A stretch of 63,860 bases of DNA, filler included, from Atractiella rhizophila (Eukaryota): the NCBI GenBank assembly GCA_021432655.1. It is 4 parts of 4 records of this genome, joined end to end, with 100 filler letters (N's around TTAATTAATTAA, not from the genome) between each part and the next. Parts side by side here need not be neighbours in the genome. Positions count along the whole stretch, not along the records: positions 49,620 to 61,097 come from MU271369.1; 3 more parts are not named here. One strand, given 5' to 3'. A program made the translations under genes and the position numbers. This document shows positions 8,579 to 61,197 of this stretch, in pieces; the stretch's first letter is position 1, and each line of letters starts with the position of its first letter. The notes under the pieces are model-generated. The model was not told the DNA's origin, did not search any database, and saw nothing but the letters and a program-made list of their open reading frames with translations.

Positions 8579-9304
8579 TGTAATGGTTAAGCCATATACA
8601 TGATAGGAGATACCGGAACCTTCTGGAACCTCTTAGAACAGTCTAGAACATTACTCTAGAATATGGTAGAACAGTCTAGAACATTCTCTGAATAACCCTA
8701 TCTGCCTGTTAGGGCTGACGCTATGTGCGGTCGCCGACGGGCGATGCGTCTGTAGTGAAGATAAATCTAAGAGCATGATTATGACATGAAGACTAACCTG
8801 TAGTGGAGATAAACCTAAGAGAATACTCTAAGGTCACCTCCACTACTCTCCAATCTATATTTACAAGTGGAATAACACTGCCACAGAGTGTAGAGGAGAG
8901 CAGATGAAACATGTAAGAGAACTAAAAGGGGAAGTGACAGTGGGATTATGCGGAGTTAATAAGAGGAGGATAGGCACAATTGGGCTAAGTGGCGATGTAG
9001 GTGCAAATGGGCGACGGGAGACGCAGTGGCGACGGGCGCCGATTCGCGTAAGATGCAAACCTGACACCTACTTCTTCAGCACATTCCAGAGACTGGATCA
9101 ACATCTCTACAACCAACCCTTCGAACCTCTTGTATACATTTCATCTTATAGCACTTCTTCAGAATAACATAAGGATAATCGACAACCAACGACGTCAAGT
9201 TTTGTGCCTAGGTTACAAAAGGATTGTTGTTTGAACCTAGTGTGAAAGAGATCAAAGGACATAAACTTTGTATAGTCTAGTCGTGAAACCTTCTAACTGT
9301 TACA
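8579..9304. mobile_element. Solo LTR (about 366 bp once the nested insert is removed) with 5-bp TSD TTCAA
   Basis: Starts TGTAATGGTTA and ends TAACTGTTACA (TG...CA, imperfect inverted ends). Flanked by TTCAA at 8574-8578 and 9305-9309. Internal TCTAGAACA-type short repeats at 8615-8690. Confidence 0.8.
8707..9066 (+). mobile_element. Solo LTR-like element, family B copy 1, nested in the LTR above
   Basis: TGTTAGGG...CCTGACA termini. The first ~150 bp align with the reverse complement of 20090-20242. No clean TSD. Confidence 0.7.
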
Positions 9305-12199
9305 TTCAACTTGACGATAAATTTTGTCAGCTTAGCTTCAAACTGTGAAGTAAAGGGGAAGTAAGGGTTGTTGAGTCGAAGTTTATTTTGCTCTTTCTGC
9401 ATCTCTAAGAGATGACATAGTGTCGGAAAAATAGAGCCTGCAACAAAAGGTCAGAGAAGAACCATGCATGTTGCGCGGAATAAATGTCTCACCTGCTTCA
9501 GAAAGTATTGAAGTAGACATTGCTCTGAAGATGGCTTCAGAGCCTCACCTGTGGCATTTGACTGCTGAAAAGCCCCAAACAAAAGTGTTTCATTTGTGGG
9601 AGCCAATGGGACTTTGTCAAGAGCAAGTTTGCTCCAAATGCAGTGGAGTCTGATTCAATAGGTGGGAAATTGCGAGAGGGAGTAGTTGTGGTTTGGAAGA
9701 GTGCTTGTGCATGATCTGAATCAAGATATCTCTCATTCTCTAGCTGTTACAGTTGTTGCTCTTCATGCTTGTGATTGAAGTGCAGGCTGATCAAAGCTTC
9801 TTTTGCAGCCTGGAAAGTTGCAAGGATATCTCTTGTTTGAGAGAGAAGGTATATCTGAGGTCTGAAGTGATATTAAACCAGCACTTTATTCTGAGGAGCT
9901 TAAGTATTTGACATAACACAAACTGTAAAACATAATTTCCCTCACTCATGAAGTGTATGCCATAAAAATAGCCATGGATGCACAATGACCACAAGCCAGT
10001 CAGGAAGCATCTTTGAAAGCTTGGCAGGGATAATAGTTGAAGGTGGTTACTTTTATCTCTACATTCTTTGCCTTAAAGACATCTCATTGGGTTGAGAACA
10101 ATAACCTGCTGGCTATGAAGAGGGAGCACAAAAGTTAGATCGTTATGATTGAACTAACTCAAACTGTTATGAACATAGACGGATAGATGCAGTAATATAA
10201 TGGGCAAAGAATGATAGTAGTTAATAATTGAGCAAACTTGAGAATGTGCTATATCTAATAAATGCTACTAAGGAATGTATTAAAATGGCAATAACATCTA
10301 AGATGGGAAATTTAATAATGTAGGCTTAAATGTAAGAGAAGTTAACCTCTTGATTCTCCCTCCTATAATGTGTCTTGCATGTACAACAGTATGGGCGGGC
10401 CTTATCACATGTCACCTTCCTTGCTCAACAAGTGTGACAAGAGGTGCCTTTCTTCGCCAGTCTGCTTTCTGTGGAAGAAGGAAATGGCTTAGAGATCAGG
10501 GAAAAAAAGAGGGGAGGTCACCATATTAGACTTGTGACGGCTAAGGGGTTTAGGAGGAAGGGTTGTATTGCAACTGACTCTAGCTATGGTGTAGCTCTCA
10601 GCAAGAAGGATGCTTGAGAGGAATAACAGACCTTGTTGCAACCCTTCTTTGGTCAGGATTTGGAGGCACAAATAGGATGGACTGGACCAGATGCATCAGG
10701 TTTCCAGTCCCAAATAGTCTATGTTCTGTCTGTGTTTGTCATGCAGAGTTCTAGGATTGGGTCCTTAACCTTGATTTCATTATACGGCACAACCTTGATT
10801 CGTTGGAGAATTGAACTGGGGATTTGACTAAGGTCAGGACCAATTAAGACATTCTTTGAGCATCAGTAGCGGGCATTAAAGCGACCATTGCAGCGGTGAC
10901 CTATTGAGTATTCGTTGACCACCTCATGATTGCACTTGTTGCATCTCCGTATCCATCCTGACTTACTCTGTTGCTCCATCAGCTCATTATCTCCTCAGAA
11001 GTAAAAAGAACTCACCACTCCCATTAGCTCAACAACCACTTTGACCCATTATGATGACCGTTGGATGGAAGGGGGAGAGGGGCAGAGTGAACTTTGATGA
11101 GGAGCAGAGGAGTGCTTGGTTTTCAAGCCAGTCGATGTAAGACTGTCAGGGTTCGAGCCCCTGATATAGCTTAAGTACAGACCAAGATGGATATAAACAC
11201 CCATCATTAGCTCTTTTAGTTCAGTTGGTTAGCTGTTGGTCTGCAGCCATCCTGCCACAGACGCATCTATTTGGTGAAAGAATCTCTGTCCCAAGTTTGG
11301 TGATAGGCTACTGATAAATAGAAACCAACACGATTGACAGTGGACAGAGTTAAGGATGTCTTCAGCAAGTATTGAGTTGAGGCCACTTGGAATGTCTTCA
11401 ATCTGAAAATTCATTACTTTGAACATGGAATAAGCATATAAAACACACTGTCGGATGAACTCAGGGTTCGCTGAGTTGATCATGATTTTCTTCATCTGAG
11501 CAGAGAGAATGTTGTCCTTGGAGAAGCTCAGGGGATGACACTCATGGAAGGAATCTGTATTTGCTGTGAATTTCTCCTCAGGTGACCTACTCATGCATCA
11601 GAACAGAAGGCATCAGCTACCAAAGAACATACAAGAAAAATGTTGCTTTCAGATGAGTTGCATCAATCGATGTGCTTTGTTGCCAGATAAGAGAAAGCAT
11701 GTAGGGCAGCAGTTCAAATGCTGAATCGGAGGAGGGCATAGGTTAATTATAGAGGAGACTGCCCTCTTATAGGTGGAGGAAACGAAGCGCCCACTCATCG
11801 TCTCCTACTCTGATACCTTTTGGAGCAGGTATGTGATAGGCAACCACTCTTTCTTATATTCTCCTTGTACTCCTTTATGAGCACATTTATTTAATCTATT
11901 TACTTTTCACTCTCATGCCATCAGTGCTCGCTGCTTAGACCTTGTTGAAGCTATGATCCTAATCAGATGGAACAGTGGGTAAGAGCAATGAATATTGTGA
12001 TCTTGCTGGACATTGCTTCTCTCCAACAATTGCTCTGGTCAATGGCGTCCACAGCGGACATTGTAAGCGACTTTTTCTTCAGAATAGAGAACTGGATCAG
12101 GCATTGATAGAGCGATAGAGTCTACCTAGCATTTCCTTTGAGAGCTATATCCACATTGAGAGACCGTACAATCCCATCGACCAGAAGGTTTTCTTCTGT

Positions 12200-18808: not shown

Positions 18809-20504
18809 CCTTGTCAAAAGGCCTTTCCTGCATTTTCCACATTTTCCAGCAAATGTTGACAAATACCAACCAATTTCCCACATTTTCAGTTTCAACCAGA
18901 AAATAAATCGAGCCACAAGCAGCCGCAATGAGCAGAGAAGTAAAATATAGGAAATTCCTGGGCTTGCTTTGCAAAACTGCAATGCTCTTTTTTTCTTCTC
19001 CAAGTTGAAACGTTGAAAGGTTGACTGGCGGTCGGGAATCTGCTGGTGAAAAATTTTCCTTTACCTTTTCGTGTGCAGGATTCTTCAGTTGCGCTCATTT
19101 TCCATGGTGCCATGCGAGGTCTATGAAGACTTGCTGTAAGAGATGTCTTACTCTTTCCCCTTTCCCCGCATCATGTATTACCATGCGACAACAATGATGT
19201 CCTGTTCTTCTAGGAAACTTGCTGCAGGGATTTGTGTGGGCAGCTTGGTGGTGTTTGAGCGTAGTAACAGGAGGAGTGACAGCCTGAATGAGGCGAAGTT
19301 CAGGTATCAAAAGTTATCGGACTCTTCAGTAAGTGCTTGCTTCCCACCTTGGAATAAAGGGTGACGAACCTGAAGTTTTCCACTCAGCTTTAGTGAGCTA
19401 ACCCTCCCCATCACCTTCATCCTTGCATAATGCAGGCAAACATGGCTCAAGGAAGGTGGTGAGTTGCCTGCTTCCTGCTTCATTTCAAGCTGCATAAGAC
19501 TGAATGTTTCACTTTAATAGTGACATGCACCGGCACTCTCGAGTCGAATAACAGGAAATGGATGCACAATACCATGGAAACGGATGGATGTGGGATATCC
19601 AGATTGTAAGAGTTGGTTCAATCCAAAAAGGAGGTGTGTCTTGTTTCTATCCTTTGCTTACTAGTATGCAAGTTGTTTGCACCGCGACTCTGACTGCACC
19701 ATGACAGCCACAGGAGCAACAAAGCGTTGTGACAGATGTGGGACAAAGTTGTTTGGAGGTCAGTGTCAGGCTTGCCACTACGCATTACCGAAATGCACCA
19801 TCCGAGGTCACGTGACCCACCTTACCGTGTCATGAGATCACGTGCCTACCCATCGCCGCTCTGCACATGTCTGCGCTGTTCGCCGCTTTCCCATTTCTCA
19901 CACGAATCGCCGCTCAGCAACCTTATACATTTCACCGGTCTGCACCGTCTCCATTTTCGCCTTATTGTCCTTTCTCACTAGTACTACCCAGTATATCTTA
20001 TTTCCGAGTATTCCCTTTATTACTTTCCTGATCTAGCTATCTTACACGTTTCAAGCAACGTATGTTACAGTTTATGGCAGTGCCTTTACTTATGTATATA
20101 TACATCGAGATGTAGTGGTGATGACCTCAGAGTATTTACCTCCACTACAGGTTAGTCTTCTCATGCCATACTATTCTCTTAGGTTTACCTCCACTACAGA
20201 TGCATTGCCCATCGGCGACCGCACATAGTGTTTGCCCTAACAGTTGGTCAAAGAAGTGGTGGGGGAGGAGGTGAAGAGGGGAGCGAGAGTCGATAATACA
20301 GGGAATTGTGGCTAATTCATGGATTATGCAACTTATTCAATTACAAAAATAAGCTCTCATGTGTTTTTCGCTTGAAGGAAATTCTGGAATAATCAGCAAC
20401 CCAGGCCCTACTTTTCGGTCTTTCCTGCATATTCCAGCACAACGGAAAAAGGTCAGAAAATCGAAGGAAATGTCGACAAATCACGGAAAGGACTTTTGAC
20501 AGGG
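18809..20504. mobile_element. Non-autonomous or decayed TIR DNA transposon, 1696 bp, 7-bp TSD CCTGAGC
   Basis: Left end CCTTGTCAAAAGGCCTTTCC versus reverse complement of the right end CCCTGTCAAAAGTCCTTTCC (18/20). CCTGAGC at 18802-18808 and 20505-20511; empty site at 18617-18640. Confidence 0.8.
19764..20242 (-). mobile_element. Solo LTR family B copy, nested in the TIR element
   Basis: TGTCAGG...CCCTAACA termini, homologous to 8707-9066 and 16106-16270. Flanks GTCAG and GTTGG are consistent with a decayed GTCGG TSD. Confidence 0.75.
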
Positions 20505-25399: not shown

Positions 25400-25499
25400 N
25401 NNNNNNNNNNNNNNNNNNNNNNNNNNNNNNNNNNNNNNNNNNNTTAATTAATTAANNNNNNNNNNNNNNNNNNNNNNNNNNNNNNNNNNNNNNNNNNNN
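25400..25499. other. Artificial contig spacer
   Basis: N run + TTAATTAATTAA (stops in six frames) + N run. Confidence 0.97.
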
Positions 25500-32193: not shown

Positions 32194-34664
<2,471 letters not shown>

Positions 34665-49519: not shown

Positions 49520-49619
49520 NNNNNNNNNNNNNNNNNNNNNNNNNNNNNNNNNNNNNNNNNNNNTTAATTAATTAANNNNNNNNNNNNNNNNNNNNNNNNN
49601 NNNNNNNNNNNNNNNNNNN
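49520..49619. other. Artificial contig spacer
   Basis: N run + TTAATTAATTAA + N run. Confidence 0.97.
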
Positions 49620-51174
49620 GGTTCTTGGGACTCAGTTCGCTATTCGCAAACGATTTCAACCCGCTTGAGGATGTATACCTTCAAACTAAGTTGTAACTGT
49701 AGAAGAACCTGTCCATGAGAGAAATAGTCTTATTGTTATTTATCAAATTCTAAGTCCGCTCCCTATGTTCCCGGGAAAAAGTAAAAGAAAGTTATGGGCT
49801 GCCGTCTATATCATCATGCTACCGCTCATATCTGTACCCTCCTAACCAAACGGTTTGCGGAACGTTGCTAATGAAGAAGACAAGGTGTTGGAGATTCTAT
49901 ACTTAATAGTGAGTCAGTTCCGCAATAACGAAATCTCGCGAGTCTACAGTGGCAGTGTCGACCACCAGACGAACGCTTGCGTCAAGGCTTCGATCTGACC
50001 GGACAATTTAGTAAGCCGGATGGTCCTTACGTCTAAGTAAGAGTGACCGCGGTTGACAACCGCAACCACGGCAGGTGAGCTTGCTCTCGCGTATGGAGGA
50101 ATTGTTCGGTCGTTCACAAAGGAGGATTTGTCATAGTGAGAAAAAACGCGTATTGAGAGTTACCGTGGTAGAACCCCCGTTGGAGGCAGGAGACGGTTAA
50201 GAGAGGAGTATGGAGTATTTGTTTCAGTAGTTTTCCATAACCTTGTGCATCCCCAGAAGAGGAACAACGAAAAGCCGTTTTGACATACATCTAATGAAAC
50301 CTAACCGATCTTGATGAGAGAGACGTTATGTACGCCTTCAGAAAAATATTCTTTAGATTTGTTCTCTGTTGTTGACTCTCTGAACTAGATAGATCTTTAT
50401 CTCTTGGTTCTCCTCCCGGCCCGTTGTTGTTCTCCAACTTTCCCTTATCTCCCCTAGTCTCGCCCTTGCACGCTTCTGGTGCGCTACCACGGCGGGGGCC
50501 TTCTCCAGATGATTCCCAACGTCATAGAAGGTATTTCCATAGAAAGGTAGAGCAACACACTCTTGCACTCTTACATTCATTCTACGCTAACTCAGTGATG
50601 TGGGATAGAATCTACTTTGTGGCTTATGTGCAATAAGTGCCAACCAGAAAGATAGGAGGCAGTTATTACTTTGGGTTTCCAAGCCTGCGCAGTATTAGTA
50701 TGCTGTTTGTGTAATTGATTGGCTGCTGGCAGATAAACACTTGGCTTCTTTCTGACATGAATCAGGGCAGATTTTTCTTCCATGGTACTAGATCAGCTCA
50801 GCACTTCAGTGTTTTATAGCCAGCCATTCGCCGGAGAATCGGTAGCAGAATATCGTCGCCTTTCCTCGGGCAGGATATGATACTTCGGTTCAACCTTTCA
50901 GACATCAGTCCAACCCTAGAATATCTGTACTGTGTTCTTCTTCCTTGTTCTTGCCGTTTCTTACTTGTTCAAAGAGAATAGACATCCTTCCATGTGTCCC
51001 GATGAGGATCTCGAGCCACAGCCGAGGTATCAGTTGCCTGTTACCGTTCCCCGAGATGCCCAAGCTCCACTCCGTACAGCTTGAGACGCCACTCGGTTTG
51101 CCAATGCAGCGGGCATCTCGGATGAGCCAGCTAGCCCTTAGACTTGGAGTTGCAAGGGTGTGACTCTAGCTGAG

Positions 51175-51183
51175 ATATAAAAG
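51175..51183 (+). promoter_or_regulatory. Candidate TATA box of the aldo-keto reductase gene
   Basis: TATAAAA about 65 bp upstream of the ATG at 51244. Confidence 0.45.
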
Positions 51184-51243
51184 CTCGACTGGAACGCTCC
51201 TGCTAAACTCAGAATCAGCAAACACGATTATATTGTCAAAGAG

Positions 51244-52598
51244 ATGGCCGCCACTATGAAATATGGTAAGTTTTTCTTTCTGAAGGTCATTTCATTCATT
51301 CGGCCGACAATAATGCACACCTAGTTCGACTGGGAGAGTCTGGGTTGAAGGTCTCCAAAATCATCCTGGGATGTATGAACTTTGGTTCAAAGAATTCCAT
51401 CCCTTGGGCAATGGGAGAGGAAGAATCGATTGCCTTGATCAAGGCTGCTTATGATCGGGGCATTAATACCTTCGATACGGCAGACATGTATTCGTCTGGT
51501 CTGTCTGAGGAGTACCTTGGGAAGGCATTGAAGCAGCACCAGATTCCACGAGAAAAGGTCAGTGTTTCCCCATTATCCAAGTTGCCAAGTGAGAATGTCG
51601 TTGTCAGGTGGTGGTGTCAACCAAGATTTATTCACCAGTCCACGACGTGCCTGGAGAAACAGCAGCTCCGATGTTATTCGCAGGAACTTTGGACGCGAAC
51701 GGATATGTGAATCGATGGGGATTGAGCCGCAAACACATTTTCGCGGCCGTGCAAAGCTGTCTACAACGGTTGCAACTCGAATACATCGACGTTCTGCAAA
51801 TTCATCGCTTCGATAATGACACTCCGATTGCGGAAACGATGAGGGCTTTACATGACGTCGTGTAATGTTCCTTTGGTTCTTTCCCCTTCTTGAAAATTAA
51901 CAAATGGAAGACAGTCAAAAAGGCTGGGTCCGATATATCGCATGCGGTTCTTGTTGGGCATATCAGCTGCAAGCAATGCAAAATTATGCTCTGAACAACA
52001 ACTTGACGCCTTTCATTGCCGTTCAAAACCACTATTCGGCATTGTACAGGGAGGAGGAGCGTGAAATGATGCCTACACTCAAGGCATGCCCCTTTTTTAC
52101 AAACCTCATCAAGCGAGCTGAGAACAGTACAGATGCTTGGAATGGGTTCATTTCCCTGGCGTCCATTGGCTGGAGGATACCTCTGTCGTCCTTTCTCTGA
52201 TCGGGAAGCGAGCAAGCGAGCCGAAGTGGACGTCTTTGGTAAAGCGACATACTCTGCTGCCGATAAAGCTATCATCGATGCCGTGGAAACCATTGCGAAG
52301 AAAAGGGGTATTTCCATGACTGCCGTTGCTCTCGCTTGGACCTTCACAAAGGTCACTGCACCTGTCGTCGGTGAGATTCAGTCTTGCAGTTTGTGGACAG
52401 GAGCTGATACGACCGCGTGCTCACTGTAGGGCCAACTAACGTCGACGCCCTTGACGATTATTTGAATGCTTTACAGGTGGAGCTCACAGAGGAAGAGATA
52501 AAAAGGTTTGTGTTTGTCCCTATGAAAATCATCCCGCTGACTAGTTGGATAGCATCGAGGAACCTTACCAGGCTCGCGCAATCTTCGGTCATTTCTGA
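51244..52598 (+). CDS. Aldo-keto reductase (aryl-alcohol dehydrogenase-like), multi-exon
   Basis: [88 protein letters not shown]. Confidence 0.93.
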
Positions 52599-52781
52599 GG
52601 CGTGCTATGCAATAATTGATCAACTGCTTCTAGTCTATATTTTGGTCCTTGTTTCTAGATGGGGCTGCAAATGCTTAGAATCCACATATCGATCGAACTA
52701 CAACAGGATAGACTTGCACGTATAAGTTAGTTGAACACTGATTCCTAAATGATGTACAATCTCAAACAACACTGAGTATGG

Positions 52782-55154
52782 CTAGGCTTTCTGGAAGAAA
52801 CCCTTCAAACTCATCTGATCGCCAGGTTTCTTCCTTTTCTTCCCGCTCCTTTCTTCCCGCTCCTCATCCTTTCTCTCTCTCTCTTTCTTCTTTGTCTTCT
52901 TCGGTTTTACCTCCTCCTCCTCCTCGCCCCGACCTCGCCGAAACTCATTTTCATGCAGCTTCTTCGCAAAATGATAATCCTCATGTTCTGCCTTCACCGC
53001 GGTCAATGCCGCTTGCACCGCTTCAGCGTCCCCAACCATCTCGTCCGGGAGGACACTGGAAGGGATCTCAACTTCCTTTCCACACTCAGGACACAGAAAG
53101 AAAGGTTTCCGTTCCGTTTTCTTTTTCTTCTTTGTCGGGTTCGGGGGGGAGGAAGACGAGGTTTCTAACTTGCGCTTCTTCGATGGTGGTGACTCTTCTA
53201 CCAAGTTTTTCGATGAGCTCTCTTTCTTGTTCGAATCCCCATTCATCCTGTCCGTAGCTTTCCCAAAAAAGCCCTCAATCCCCTTCTGCCCAGCCTCCAT
53301 CCTTTCCAGACCATTGAATGCGAGACTAAGATTTGTAATCTTCCCCAATCCGCCTTCCTCTCCCTTTTTCTTCTCGCCTTGTAGGTCGCGCATCAACTTC
53401 TCGGCTAGCTTCGTAATGTATTCTGGGGAGAGGTTGGAGGTGTACGAGAAAGGAGCCTGTTTGGATTTTGTCGTGTAAGTCGAGTTGCGGGCGTGGAGGA
53501 CGAGCGTTTTTGGCCACAGACCAGGGGATAGGGAGATGGATTCGGTGAGGCGAGCGGCAAGATCGGTGGACAGGACTCGAAACCAATGCAGCTTTTAGAG
53601 CCAACCAAACAACGATGTTGGTAAAAGCAAAATATGACGAGACAGGGACTGACGACTTGCTCCCATGTCGTGATGTAGGGTCTGAAATTCTTAGAGCTCA
53701 ACATCGACTTGGTTTGCACCTTTGGAGTCACTTCGGAGTGGTCCACTCCTGAAGTCTCTGATCAGTCAACTATTCGACGTAGGGAAAGGGTAAACAACCT
53801 CGAACCACCTGCCAGATCCACATTCCACCCTCCTCTCCGAACCTCTTTTGTAGTTCATCCAAGCTAATCGTCCTTCATACAATGCGCATCAAAGATCAGT
53901 CTTCCTGCTCCGACAGTGAACAAAACCAAGACGAACCAAACGTCTCCAACGGTTGCGACATCAAACTCCTTCGCAATCTCGTCCCCTCTCTTCCCACCAA
54001 GGTTCCTGAGCTTTTGAAAGTTAAGTGGTCGCAGGAAATCAGCTATCGCATCCGGCGGTAGGATTGTTTGCTCATTCGGTTTCTTCCAACCTGAACAGAG
54101 TTTCGAGAGTAGCTTGTTCTGCGCTATTCCGGCGCTACAAGTATATTGTAGCTCGTCGTAGACCTGCCGACAGCAGTCAACTCTGCTTCTAATATGTCGA
54201 ACGGAAAGGTTGGACGGACAGCTTGTCGACACCGTTGCATCATTTCTGCTCCTAATCCGAGAGCGACGTCCGTCCAGGTATAAGTCTCCCTCTCCTTCTG
54301 CTTCTCGATCTCCTCTGGAACATCGTCTACTCCCAGTTTCCGTTTCTCGGCACTTCCCTTCCTGATAACATTACCCTTCCCCTCCCAGCTCCAGTCGCTG
54401 GGTACAGGCGGAAGTGGATCATCAAGCTTTACGGAGCCTTCAGGTCGTTTCTCGAAATCTAGCTGGGGATATCGCTCAAGGAGAAGCTGGCGCACGGGTA
54501 GCGTGAGGTCAAGAAACGCTTCGTCAATTGAAGCTTTCTCAATTGTTGGACAATGTTCCGAAAAGACTTTGAGAATCTTCAAGCTCTCTCTTCTGTACGG
54601 GTCGAGGGAGACCTTAAACAATAAACATGCCTCAGAATTTTATCCACACCATACGTTAACACCTGAGACGGAAAAGCGTACCTTGTGAGTCTCAGGTCGC
54701 GCGTTCTCCCAATATCCAACCTCACTTTCTCCCTCCTCCTCTCCACTTCCGACCTTGTAAGTGGCCACATGCACAAACCTGATATTAGGACATTTCTTCT
54801 TCGCGTCTTCGATCTTTTCATGTCTCGTGATGCCGAACGCTCGAGCTGGATAGTTGATAGCGATTAATCCTTGCCATTGTTGAACTGCCACAGGGAGATC
54901 TCGAGGTAACGAGAGTCTGGACATCTCGAATTGTGCGCTTCGAACATTCTAATCAGCCTAGAATGTTTCTTTACAGATAAAGCTCACTAGGCAGCATCTA
55001 TGTCACAGTGCGCGATAACTCGCAGCGGGTTTCTGCACCAGTGGAAAGGTTGAGTCAAACCGAAGATGGGCACACAGGGAAGATCCTGAACCTACGTGAC
55101 CGATGTTCCAGCATTGTGAAGGTGTCGGTAGGTTATTGGCGCTGTTGACGACAT
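52782..55154 (-). CDS. RAD30: Y-family DNA polymerase eta
   Basis: RVIAHCDIDAAY, AVQQWQGLIAINYPAR, KVSLDPYRRES, EKASIDEAFLD, CSAGIAQNKLLSKL, KSMLSSKNF, UBZ finger CPEC...EHEDYHFA, PIP box QMSLKGFF. Confidence 0.95.
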
Positions 55155-55782
55155 TCTCTTCGCTTTAACGAGCTACACCATACCAGCAGCAATCGTTCTC
55201 TTTCTTCTCTTTCTGTTCGCCCTCGCGTGTCGTCACGTGCGCCAAGTTCGTTCGTTACCATTTTGTAGTGTAGTTCTTAGTGCTGCTTTCCAGTTGTTTC
55301 GTTCAATGTAATTCGAGATGGGCGGTGTCCTTCAAGTTACCCTTACTTATCAGTGGGCGTGGGGGAGGATGTTTTGGGCAGCCAGTCAAGGATCAGGGAA
55401 CTGCTTGCGCAGTTTGGAAGATGGAAATTGACCATGGAATTACTGTACTGTACCCAGGCATTCGTGAGTCGCGGACCGCGCACGTTATCACACTAGCACC
55501 AGCGCGCAAGCAGCATGGAAAGATGTTGGTTCAATTCTGACGGTCGTCATGTCAGAGGGCTTGGGTGCGATGAACGGCAGTTAGGCTAGTGAGGCCACAA
55601 TAAATTCAGCCTGTCTGCATTGAAGCTGGAATCTGTGTCTTCCTTCTTTGTTGCGGCCAACAGCTTGTAGCTGAGATTACGCTTCCTTCCCTTCTCTTAC
55701 TCGACGGACTGTACCTACCGTTCTCCTTCCTTCAAACAACATTGGGTAGAAATTCTTTCGTTTTTCTAAAAAGGCATCAAGC

Positions 55783-57973
55783 ATGCATTTCATATTCCTT
55801 TCGGTTGTATCTTCTGTCTTTTCCCTCGTCTCAGCACGAACAAATGACTGGTCCGTCCCTTGCTTGTCAGGACAATGTTCGTACGATCTCCCCGTCTCCT
55901 TCAACAAGGAGACCAATAGTCGCTCTCTGGGAAGCATGAGAGTGGTCAGTCCTCTCTCCTCTATCTCACCATAAGCTTTTCTGAAGCTTGCATGGCGAAG
56001 TGGGGAAACACGTCTGCTTTGTCGGATATCACGTCTGCCGCTGGTTGGACGATATTGGACTGCAATGCTACCTCGCTTTCACAGGACATCCGCATTGTCT
56101 GCCCTCGCGGTGATGAAGGGTGTAACAACCTCTTCTCTGGACGTGGAGGTGGAGTCAACAAGTTGGTGAGATTGCCAGAGAGTGTAAGCTTCCTAACTTA
56201 TTCATCGATCGCAGACAATAATGAGAAGGATTAGTGCGGAAAGATGCCTTTCGCCAGAGTAGCGAGAGTGTGGACGCACAAGAACCAGTCCATTCCCAGT
56301 AATGTCAAGCTAGCGAACTCAGGAAGAATACCAACAGTCCATGGCCTCGCGATTGACACGAACTTCGCGGCAGTCGATCCTTCAACGTTGGTCCTCACTC
56401 CCTGTTCACAGACAGATTCTAAATCTTGTTTCCAACAGCGTTGGAACCGTGAATATCGCTATCCAAGGCTCCAACCTCCCTGGTCAAGCGGACAACGCGA
56501 CAGTCACACCCGCTGACTCGTCAGAGGCTGCTACCAAACGCGGCCTTTTCGACTTCATCACCGACGCGCTGAACAAGTTCAACCAGATTAAAGTGAACGA
56601 GTCCGAACCATTGGATCACTTATCATTCTCCAAGAATTTGACAGTGTTAGACGAATCCATCAGCTGCTCTCTACCTGATGGAACCACCTTTGATGCGGGA
56701 TTCGATGTTGATGTCAGCGGAAGATTTGAAGGTGACGTTACTATCGGGATAGTCGCGACTGGTACCATCGTACCTCCCGTGTTGGACAATTTTGCCGTCT
56801 ATGCTGGTGAGCGTGCTTATTGTCGTGGAGATTTCTTCGCTCACTGAAGGGAGGAAGGCCTGAGCGCTTCGCTGGGAGGAACACTTGATATCAAAGCACA
56901 TGCAGGAGCCAGCGTAGCCCCACCTGACATTACAATTTTCCAAGCCAACCTCGCAGGCCTAAACTTTCCTGGGTCAGTCTCCTGTTATCAGTTGGCGTTT
57001 CGAAGCTCTGAACAGACAGATTAGCATCCTGAATGTTGGCCCTTCCTTCAACATTGTTGCACGAGCGAAAGCGGGCATCCAAGTCGATGCAGATCTCAAA
57101 GTTGATCTGTCATACAGCACACAAGATACAATCCTCTTCTTTCCCCCGAACGATCAGTTCCAAAGCGGCGGAACATGGAAACCTGACCCTGCCGGTCAGT
57201 TGTGTTTATTTACTCCCATGAGAACCGCGACAGGCACTAGACGCTGATGTTGGGGAACGCAGATCTCTCGCTCAGCGTTTCCCCTGAAGCTACAGCGAGT
57301 GGTACTTTAGAATTTCATCTTATTCCTTCTGTGCGTCATTCTTGCTCTCTTACCACAAAATGCTGCTTACTTCTTTCATTCAACTCGGCAGATCTCAATC
57401 GGTCTCGACGCTCTTTCTATCGCGAAGGCGGAAGTGTTCCTCAACCTCGACTCGTCGGCGACTCTCAACGCAAATCTCGCAGTCACCGGTCCAGAGATCA
57501 ATCAAAATCTCTCTGTTCCGATCAATGCTTCGGATCCCCAGTTCTCTGGTTGTCTCGATATTGCAGCCGGATTGGATGTTAACGCTGGAGCTTCCGCTGA
57601 CTTCTTTGACATCTTCAAGAAGGACGCGACCATCAGTCTGTTCTCGAAAGATTTCCAGATCCTCAACGTTCGCTCTTCTCTCACGAGTTTCCTTGCCCTG
57701 TCTTGACGCATTGAGATAGAAATGTTTCGGAGATGATGCTACAGCTACGACAAAGCGGTTAAAGACACGACGAGCTATAGAAAGTCATCGTAACAGGCAA
57801 ATCAAACGACTTGGGCATAGCGCACTCAGCGTGAAACGTCAAGACAGCACTGGACTCAACTGCATACCCCAAGCTAGCTCAGATTTGTTCAACATCGCAG
57901 ATACTTCTGTAACGTACGTCCTCCTTCCTCATTGATCGTTTGTTGACGACAATCTTGCTGTAGCTTATCGTAA
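55783..57973 (+). CDS. Secreted beta-rich, Cys-containing protein of unknown function, multi-exon
   Basis: Signal peptide MHFIFLSVVSSVFSLVSA; NDWSVPCLSGQCSYDLP; ALSDITSAAGWTILDC; KLVRLPES/CGKMPFARV; dibasic KR sites. Confidence 0.75.
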
Positions 57974-58229
57974 AAAAGTAAGGTTGTGCTGTGATGTTGT
58001 ACTTTCACCTCCCTATTTATTGAAATAATATCTCAATCGTTAGTCTGTGGCTGGAGTCTTGTCCCTTGTCCCTGGAGAGCTGTTCAGGAGAGATAATTAT
58101 CAGATTCAGATTCAACAATTCAATCATGATCGTTTCGGCGATGGATCACCGAGAAAAGCTGCGACAAGCATCCTCAACATTCTGCGTGGTGGTGTCTCTG
58201 TGGGACTGCCATCGAGGACAGCCAAAAAT

Positions 58230-58970
58230 ATGTTTCTGCCAGTGCACGTCCCTTTCACCCTCGCGGTGTTCACTGCCGTCTGCAGTGGCCTTTCCGCTGA
58301 AGAAGATCCCTATCTCTCGCGATTCGGGGTGGTACCAGACTTGTCGTTCTCAGGTTTGCCCTTCCCTCACAGTATCTCCGAGTCACTTAGGTTGACTGCT
58401 CCTTCGAAGGTATTAACACCTTTGCCCACCTCCCTCACAATCCTTGCCTTAGCAATCTCTCTGCCGAGTACGATATCGCAATCCTAGGCGCTCCTTTTGA
58501 CACTACTACAACTTTTAGGTGCATTCATTTCCTAAATTGCGTCTACTCGAGCCCAGTCAGGTGAGATACTGACCGACTGTTTGATCACGTAGGCCAGGAG
58601 CGAGGTTTGGGCCCCATGGTATCCGTACTGGCTCCAGGCGACAAAGGCCAGCGATGGGATATTCGTCAAGGTTGGAGGTGAATCCTTACGCTTCCGGATA
58701 CAGGGTCCTAGGTACAGGCTTTGTTTTGTTCTAATCGGTATTGAATGAGGTGACAATATTTGCTGAAGATTGTGGCGATGTTCCCATGTCGCCGTTCTCG
58801 AATCGGTTGGCGATAGACATGCTGGAATCTGTACGTGCCTCCACTTATGCCCTCCCCTGCCTTCTTAAGCTCAAATGTAACTAAATTCAGGCATATAAAT
58901 CCCTCCTGTTGCGTCCAGCCTTGAACTTCAAAGCACCCTTCTCCAGCCATCCAAAAATTGCTACATTAGG
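58230..58970 (+). CDS. Agmatinase/ureohydrolase, 5' half with signal peptide (continues in the reversed block)
   Basis: Spliced MFLPVHVPFTLAVFTAVCSG...DLSFSG/INTFAHLP...DIAILGAPFDTTTTF/RPGARFGPHGIRTGS...VL/DCGDVPMSPFSNRLAIDMLES/AYKSLL...HPKIATLG. Confidence 0.92.
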
Positions 58971-59203
58971 CTCGAGAGGGGTTGTATAAAGACGCTTTAT
59001 AACGTCTAAGACGTTGATAACTACTGTCTAAATAAGGTCGACAACTAAAAAAGGACACGCAGGTATGCGGCGATAGCTTGCCGTAGAATCTTTACTTCCC
59101 GAAACATGTCAGTGTCTACGTTCCGTCTATTACGTCTTAAACTGTCGCTTTCCCCTAATTTTAGTGGGACTCGGGTTATGATGGCTTTTTCGTCTAACGA
59201 GTG

Positions 59204-59414
59204 GAAGGAGGAAGGGGAAGGGAGGTTCGTCGAGGAAGTGTGGTAGTCGTCCGTTTCGCGCGTATAGGAACTTGGGGTCGAAGAAACGCTCGAGTGACCG
59301 GAAGGGGTTGAGGAAAGGAACGAGATCTCTGTGGTGTTGTTCCCTCTAGACCGATAGAAAACGGCGACTAAACCCGAACTTCTTTACACACTCATCTAAG
59401 CCGCGCCGACTGTA
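59204..59414. CDS. Prolyl-tRNA synthetase N-terminal (YbaK/ProX-like) exon 1, readable only right-to-left on the plus strand
   Basis: Reverse read from 59414: MSAAPNLLTHFFKPKSAAKDSQISLVVVSLEQGKELGKASELAKKLGFKDMRALPADGVKELLGGKGKEE then a GTGAGC donor. Resembles the FKPK...VVVAL start of fungal ProRS. Confidence 0.6.
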
Positions 59415-60213
59415 AAACCTTGCCTTTTACCGACTTCTTGATTATGTTGCACTCTTTTCTTCTCCAAATCTTTTTAGACCCCTACCACATCTCTCGGTTA
59501 CGCGGCAAAATAGAGCAGCAGTCTCTCTCTACAACTAGCTTAGACCAAATGAGGTGGGTTCGTTCAGTACAAACAACGGTCTCAAATTTGTTGGTAAGTG
59601 TTACCTGACAGCTGAGCTGAAATCCAGCTTAGAGCAGCTGACTCCTGGTAATCGCGACTAAGTGCACATAAAATAGAAACGGACTCAGCATAAGACACTA
59701 CCTCTTACCTCTTAACTGCAATTCGTAACAGGTACAATTTTCAGATATTTAGCTATTGGTAAATGTTGACAGAAGTAGAACATACAGGAAGGTAAACTTT
59801 CAACACCCACCTGAGAAGACATTCGGAAAGAGGACGGTGTTACCTGTCAACCTTACCCTGCTGCGGCAGATTGCGTACGAGACTTCTGAACAGACACAAG
59901 TGCTTACAGGACGTGACTTTAAAGCGCTAAAAAGCATAAGGAGAAATTCCATCACGGACAACTGTAAGTGTTAAAAGGAAGAAGGTTAAATGTCGTCGTT
60001 CGTTGTCGACACGCGGCGGTTAGATCATTACACCGTGTCTCTTGGCGGTCTTACGATCCTCTGTTGTCCCTTAATTGTGACTCTCGTTCGAACGATAGGT
60101 ATATAAACAAACTATAAGTAAGAAGAGGTAACGATCTTACTACCGGACAAAACTAAACTTACGTATGTGTAATAGGGTCTAAGGAACAGAAGCTTTTCGA
60201 AAACGTACAATGG

Positions 60214-61097
60214 GATTTCAAGCAGAAAAAGGGAAGGCGGGTCGAAGAGGCGTATTAAGTACAGTAAAAACTGTTGGTGGCTGTCGTCAACTTTATAGTC
60301 TAGACGCCGACGTTTAGGACAATGAGGTCGTCCTAGTATTAGGCCACGTTGGAGGTGTTGCAGCTTTGGTTGCTACAACTCTAACTCCAATTGTTTAGGT
60401 CGCTACTATGCGAAGTTGAGTGCGCTGCAGGTGGGCGGCGAGAGACCGCACGGATGTTTAACGGGTAGTCCTTATACATACGCACCTCTATCTTTGCTGT
60501 CTATCAATGGTCATCGTCCACGTTTACGACCTAGGTCCTGTAGCTACAGGTGTGACTATATCTGCTCTAACAGGGGATAGGAGGAGAACTGGAAAAGATC
60601 ATAAGGAAGGTGTGGTTAGAGTAGATAGAGTAGACAGAGGTGATTAAGCTTAGGGTGAAGGGCTAGTACGGACATCAGGAGATCTGGTCAGTTGGAGCAG
60701 GCATAGGGTTCCACCTATGATCCACGGTCTTCCAAGAGAAGGCGGCGATACACTTTCTTTCAAGGCACCCAACACGCTGGTCTCGGTATTACTAACACGA
60801 GGTGACGTCAACGCAACGGTTCCATATCTAGTAGACCTCAGGTACACAGAGACACATGCTAGTCTATCTTCTTTCCCTGTTTCTTTCTCCGACTGTTCAC
60901 TCGCAGTTTCACCTAATGACTCTAAACCGCGACCATCTGAACTCTTTCACGAGACTCCTAACCGATGTTTCCACTGCACTCGGTACGGTACTAAAATAAA
61001 CCTACTCTCTGTATGATCCTGCTAGCACACTAGACCCACTGTTCGTAACTACGAGTCGGTTTCGAGTCGTTCTCTTTTCGCTTTCCTGCTTGGTGGC
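60214..61097. CDS. Agmatinase 3' half, readable only right-to-left on the plus strand
   Basis: Reverse read: G/DHTIVL/PILRAL...VIHFDAHL/DTW...THGTFFH...SIHLGIR...VYISVDIDVLDPAFAPAT/GTPESGGWTSREL...GFDVVEVAPDYD...GGREKDEL*. Confidence 0.93.
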
Positions 61098-61197
61098 NNN
61101 NNNNNNNNNNNNNNNNNNNNNNNNNNNNNNNNNNNNNNNNNTTAATTAATTAANNNNNNNNNNNNNNNNNNNNNNNNNNNNNNNNNNNNNNNNNNNN
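61098..61197. other. Artificial contig spacer
   Basis: N run + TTAATTAATTAA + N run. Confidence 0.97.

Follow-up and report, generated by a model that had tools for sequence, protein, structure and literature searches.

In the stretch of 63,860 nucleotides of DNA analysed here, which we refer to as the window, both ends of one contig are written with their letters reversed and not complemented, and we regard these mirrored ends as almost certainly an artefact of data processing by software rather than as biology. The window consists of four pieces of the Atractiella rhizophila assembly GCA_021432655.1, and the finding concerns the third of these, positions 49620-61097 (MU271369.1, hereafter c3), in which the letters run reverse(A) + B + reverse(C), with an A of 983 nt, a B of 8368 nt and a C of 2127 nt, the real DNA being A + B + C, an ordinary genome. 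Every concrete statement that a preliminary description of this DNA had made on the right end of the contig is confirmed, and mirroring of the left end, which was absent from that description, is new in the present analysis. DNA that is reversed and left uncomplemented escapes BLASTX, gene finders and two-strand read mappers, and anyone meeting such a block might take it for an orphan or a rapidly evolving sequence, or see something extraordinary in it. The value of the present observations accordingly lies in a data-quality alert on a public record and in a simple detection test; they contain no new biology.

Layout of the contig

The correctly written core of c3 spans 8368 nt (50603-58970), gives positive k-mer scores and is matched both by contigs from public sequencing runs and by Pfam profiles. 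It carries ordinary fungal genes, namely an aldo/keto reductase at about 51270-52430 on the plus strand and a Y-family DNA polymerase-like gene with a UBZ finger at about 52785-54640 on the minus strand, both from Pfam matches, as well as an unnamed spliced gene at about 55440-58000 on the plus strand, seen in the run contigs, which show GT..AG or CT..AC joints on the core. On either side of the core lie a left mirrored block of 983 nt (49620-50602) and a right mirrored block of 2127 nt (58971-61097), in both of which the letters are reversed and not complemented. Both junctions are base-exact, with zero bases lost or gained at either, and each mirrored block ends at a spacer. The limits of the right block are uncertain by one base per end, since 58971 and 61097 are both C, and those of the left block are likewise uncertain by one, its end letters both being G. 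The left end is judged to be mirrored because the loose ends of run contigs carry un-mirrored letters there, as described below, and the earlier warning that other contig ends might be affected has thereby come true at 49620-50602 on the very same contig.

The three spacers of the window are 100 nt long and identical, each reading N44 + TTAATTAATTAA + N44. One lies at 25400-25499, that at 49520-49619 marks the contig or gap edge left of c3, and that at 61098-61197 adjoins the right mirrored block, so that position 61097 stands directly before it and the block indeed ends at a contig edge, as had been stated. The linker TTAATTAATTAA is palindromic and has stops in all six frames; among the literature matches listed for it, no pipeline was identified.

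The interrupted ureohydrolase gene

The right junction cuts through a gene of the arginase family. The plus-strand gene that had been described as breaking off at 58970 does so inside a codon, after the residues ...ATLG plus two further bases, and the continuation proposed for it, read leftwards from 61097, supplies C GGT G, an intron GTTCGT...CAG (61092-61033) and AT CAC, which together complete ATLGGDH. The correctly written part of the ureohydrolase (58230-58970, plus strand) encodes residues 1-166 in exons at 58230-58353, 58410-58518, 58593-58711, 58769-58830 and 58891-58970, separated by GT-AG introns at 58354-58409, 58519-58592, 58712-58768 and 58831-58890, all four of which are confirmed by GT..AG joints in the contigs of a public sequencing run (X3, see below). 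The remainder, residues 167-387, is readable only from 61097 leftwards to 60214, and in our gene model it is made up of the exon pieces 61097-61093, 61032-61016, 60963-60896, 60850-60510 and 60452-60214 and the GT-AG introns 61092-61033, 61015-60964, 60895-60851 and 60509-60453. The model hence reproduces the four GT-AG introns and the stop previously assigned to the mirrored part, the stop codon being 60216-60214. Once un-mirrored, it has 9 exons, 8 GT-AG introns and 387 codons for amino acids ending in a C-terminal KDEL, and the reversed reading of the block holds an open stretch of 249 codons with ureohydrolase-like content and the KDEL at its end. The real locus would accordingly comprise a nine-exon gene for a 387-aa ureohydrolase, followed by a second gene.

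The public proteome contains two proteins of this species that bear on the locus. The first, P0006, is the 93-aa 'Arginase/deacetylase, partial [Atractiella rhizophila]' annotated for the window copy, and it is 100% identical over 95% of a 42-aa query taken from window positions 58588-58713. P0006 (58394-58803) opens with residues (DCSFE...) that come from intron 1, at its 3' end, and breaks off 27 nt before exon 4 is complete, and it looks like a homology-seeded partial model and not like the true exon structure. The second, P0157, is a 387-aa 'Arginase/deacetylase' from another scaffold (94945 nt), which clusters with P0006 (80047-nt scaffold). Our model of the window gene was built before P0157 was seen, and the two are of equal length and identical at 382 of 387 residues, with a single difference within the 221 mirrored residues. 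A full-length protein with the exact exon sequence of the window copy was not found among the longer public proteins. The near-identity of the gene copies on two scaffolds points to either two haplotypes or a locus assembled in duplicate.

Homology places the two parts of the gene on either side of the junction in a complementary manner. A library search with P0006 returned 1830 relatives at E <= 0.001, and from 156 proteins (the best 150 of the 1830 plus earlier ones) we took all those of 360-480 aa, 16 in number, and compared them by tblastn with the as-given window, on both strands, and with the letter-reversed window. The N-terminal third of all 16 homologs matches the as-given positions 58367-59004, and the remainder of all 16 matches the reversed window only, from 60975 leftwards to 60232, with E values from 1.6e-24 to 1.5e-48. 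There were no other tblastn matches of these homologs elsewhere in the reversed window, and none to the as-given block past 59004 on either strand. That the reversed sequence should match ureohydrolases had been expected, and it does so for 16 of 16 arginase-family homologs. The as-given part accounts for positions 48-177 of a profile made from the 16 homologs and the mirrored part for positions 178-376, the two meeting at the junction with neither loss nor overlap, and the full model scores with an E value of 5.5e-142. Furthermore, when P0157 is the tblastn query, its residues 1-170 are found in the window as given, whereas it takes the mirrored window to find residues 173-387 (E 1.9e-133).

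P0157 is a complete protein of the arginase family. It matches Pfam PF00491 with an E value of 4.9e-82 over residues 63-364 and profile positions 2-277 of 280, scoring 276 bits against a curated cut-off of 22, whereas P0006 reaches 55.1 bits and covers profile positions 2-65 only; single short exons as given produced one sub-threshold arginase-family match in Pfam (E 0.014). Residues G165 G166 D167 H168, H190 D192 H194 D196 and D296 D298 D301 P302 are common to at least 16 of the 17 aligned sequences, and we take GGDH, DAHxD and DxDxxDP to be the conserved metal-site motifs of the arginase family; the junction of the mirrored block falls inside such a motif, between G166 and D167. Among solved chains, P0157 comes nearest to 3-guanidinopropionase (3nip, E 9.5e-50), with guanidinobutyrase (3nio, E 3.4e-48) next; proclavaminate amidinohydrolase (1gq6) ranks behind these two and ahead of agmatinases (7lol). 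By sequence the hidden gene would encode a ureohydrolase of the arginase family, in the guanidino-acid hydrolase / agmatinase branch, whose nearest solved members use guanidino acids and agmatine as substrates. Its product shares PF00491 membership with the enzymes of PDB entries 3nip, 3nio and 7lol, but the fungal protein differs from them in its hydrophobic N-terminus and its KDEL end. The N-terminus (58230-58310) is hydrophobic and signal-peptide-like, and the KDEL is found at 60231-60214 read leftwards. A C-terminal KDEL or HDEL occurs in 2 of the 16 homologs and hydrophobic leaders in most of them, a pattern suggestive of an arginase-family clade that belongs to the secretory pathway or resides in the ER.

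Sequencing runs and composition of the blocks

Public runs were searched with positions 52000-61097, and contigs of runs X1-X4 were then placed on the whole of c3. The run data are Logan contigs and not raw reads; X1 and X2 represent one DNA sample, and X3 is from another sample, its contigs being spliced and RNA-like. Behind the right junction at 58971, contigs of X1 and X2 run on for 30 letters, every one identical to the block read backwards at its letters 2-31, and the X3 contig runs on for 12 letters, all of which agree with that reading once the predicted intron 61092-61033 has been spliced out. Before the left junction at 50602, 30 of 30 letters in X1 and X2 equal the reverse of window positions 49621-49650, and the loose end of X3 before 50605 has a 12-letter core that is found only in the un-mirrored left block. 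The earlier opinion that a software error is the likeliest cause of the right block gains support from these run contigs, which continue in the backwards reading, as well as from the 382 of 387 residues shared with P0157.

A transcript-like X3 contig crosses the left junction as well. Its loose end is placed about 60 nt upstream in the un-mirrored reading, so that 50545-50604 is skipped, and no canonical GT-AG or CT-AC ends could be placed for this skip; a shift in the alignment, a variant with a deletion or a non-canonical intron may account for it.

Over roughly 8.4 kb the run contigs and the window disagree at about 100 positions (40 listed plus 61), and X1-X3 may stem from another isolate or from a twin haplotype; the two-copy locus may itself be the source of these differences of roughly 1%. 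The loose ends of X1-X3 could consequently belong to the intact twin copy and not to the window copy. In X1, 7 of 30 depth bins are without cover and these are exactly the bins lying wholly inside the mirrored blocks, and in X2 the same 7 bins plus 53067-53832 are uncovered, but in neither run is missing cover counted as evidence. The share of sampled words in common with the window, 0.60 for X1 and 0.56 for X2, where 0.77 would be the most attainable with the mirrored quarter missing, is not counted as evidence either.

The composition of the DNA provides a measure of the reversal in which neither homologs nor reads take part. Real DNA is symmetric under reverse complementation and asymmetric under plain reversal, and the score that we gave to each k-mer is a log ratio comparing how often it occurs with how often its reversed spelling does, with k-mer frequencies trained on the rest of the window in a strand-symmetrised, leave-out manner. 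With 5-mers in 1-kb windows the mean score is +58 (sd 38) and the right block gives -94 to -124, and the cumulative 5-mer score has its change points at 58958 and 61077. With 6-mers, normal windows of 300 nt have a mean of +30.1 (sd 20.4, n=594, 7.7% below zero) and mirrored windows of 300 nt a mean of -46.2 (n=26), just 1 of the 26 lying above zero. An inward 6-mer scan from the contig edges falls to -421.5 at the right end of c3, reached after 2122 nt, and to -59.7 at the left end, reached after 972 nt, and both values are below all 1954 null values, the minimum of which is -40.0. The four other spacer flanks give -2.0 to -6.2, values equalled or undercut by 28-54% of the null, and look normal; flipped k-mer sign is hence seen at 2 of the 6 flanks in the window, both of them on c3. 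Stop-free stretches of at least 100 codons agree with this, amounting in the right block to 109 aa/kb as given vs 349 aa/kb reversed, and in four other pieces to 222-401 aa/kb as given vs 86-132 reversed. The k-mer score is reference-free and separates mirrored from normal DNA well, and with it a whole assembly can be screened in seconds.

Weak negative dips of the k-mer score also occur in normal DNA, at 8601-9400, 19801-20300, 33200-33599 and 53903-54402, with -12 to -31 per 300 nt. We considered and rejected mirroring for these, as they are within the normal spread and as the dip at 53903-54402 is covered by run contigs, from which it follows that dips of such size do not indicate mirroring.

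Origin of the reversal and its consequences

The letters of c3 would be explained if its two terminal segments had been reversed in place without complementing, and a strand flip followed by complementing without reversal would leave identical letters. Several other explanations of the mirrored order need to be weighed against such an artefact. An ordinary inversion, a mis-oriented (reverse-complement) join or a chance resemblance is virtually impossible. The situation does resemble reverse-complement misassembly in that software is the cause and that a gene is broken, and its annotation cut short, by a block at the end of a contig, but it differs in that the right block of c3 is a plain reverse, to which BLASTX and six-frame gene finders are blind. 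Indeed the C-terminal two thirds of the homologs (n=16) and of P0157 are absent from both strands as given in tblastn, and matches, with E values down to 1.9e-133, appear only after plain reversal, which also speaks against chance, as does the 6-mer edge score of -421.5 against a null minimum of -40.0. As the hidden sequences are encoded on neither strand of the record, inversion and mis-oriented join are excluded. A mirror repeat is excluded as well, since the window, which was the whole of the search space, holds no second arm: when the mirrored window was compared by blastn with the given one, there was no match at E <= 1e-5. Mirror repeats of the H-DNA type have two arms in one DNA and are short and of low complexity. 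The right block of c3 is like such homopurine/homopyrimidine repeats in that reading a sequence backwards along its own strand gives another sequence, but unlike them it is a single arm of 2.1 kb of complex genic sequence.

It is just as hard to credit that the mirrored order is the physical DNA of the sequenced isolate, the letter-reverse of an ancestral segment. Polarity reversal that leaves the bases uncomplemented is not known from any reaction of replication, repair or recombination, and an inversion produces the reverse complement. The only opening for mirror DNA in the isolate is that the runs X1-X3 are possibly not the isolate's own reads, but near-identical organisms carry un-mirrored junctions on both sides, in DNA as well as in spliced RNA-like contigs, each of the two separate blocks stops precisely at an edge of the contig, and frame and base count are kept exactly across the junctions. 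A different matter is the stage at which the artefact arose. The same reversal might have been made after deposition, during collection or preparation of the window, in which case the public assembly would be correct, and the N44 + TTAATTAATTAA + N44 spacers, which look like the work of window or pseudomolecule building and are abutted by both blocks, are in line with that. This is unlikely, however, in view of P0006 being a 93-aa fragment that starts in intron 1 and ends before the end of an exon, and of the same annotation having given the twin copy its full 387 aa, as a mirrored deposit predicts and an intact one does not. The error therefore very probably resides in the deposited assembly and not in later handling, the deposit being favoured as its site because the twin has a full 387-aa model and the window copy a 93-aa fragment.

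As to how a software artefact in the deposit came about, we infer, tentatively and with more doubt than conviction, that contig ends beside scaffold gaps were extended and that the strings were put in the wrong order. A routine for leftward extension that forgets to reverse its string, and that is used on both ends by way of the reverse complement, would write reverse(A) + B + reverse(C). The exact junctions fit either reversal in place or wrongly ordered end-extension strings beside gaps. A faulty graph-path writer trimming k-mer overlaps was also considered and is less likely, since the junctions are exact and there is no duplicated overlap. Among the literature matches listed on reversal without complementing, none is about assemblies according to titles and the beginnings of abstracts, and among those listed on the Atractiella rhizophila genome, no title describes the assembly. 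There is a real possibility, falling somewhat short of an even chance, that the bug is systematic and that many gap-side contig ends in this assembly, and possibly in others from the same program, are letter-reversed. If this were so, each reversed end would hide or truncate genes beyond the reach of six-frame tools.

For c3 itself the consequences are plain. Because of the mirrored block the public annotation of the window copy amounts to only 93 aa, so that an enzyme of 387 aa figures as a 'partial' protein in the public proteome, and at least one further gene is cut. A second gene start had been noted at 59414, and 59414-59412 read leftwards is in fact an ATG opening an ORF, with an open stretch of 118 codons in the mirrored reading. 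The ORF runs towards 58971, which is the true contig end and where it is cut. A public protein search with a 120-codon ORF that is present in the block as given (60654-61013) produced 2 candidates, none at E <= 0.001. The N-terminal part of the second ORF may resemble YbaK/ProX-type aminoacyl-tRNA deacylases.
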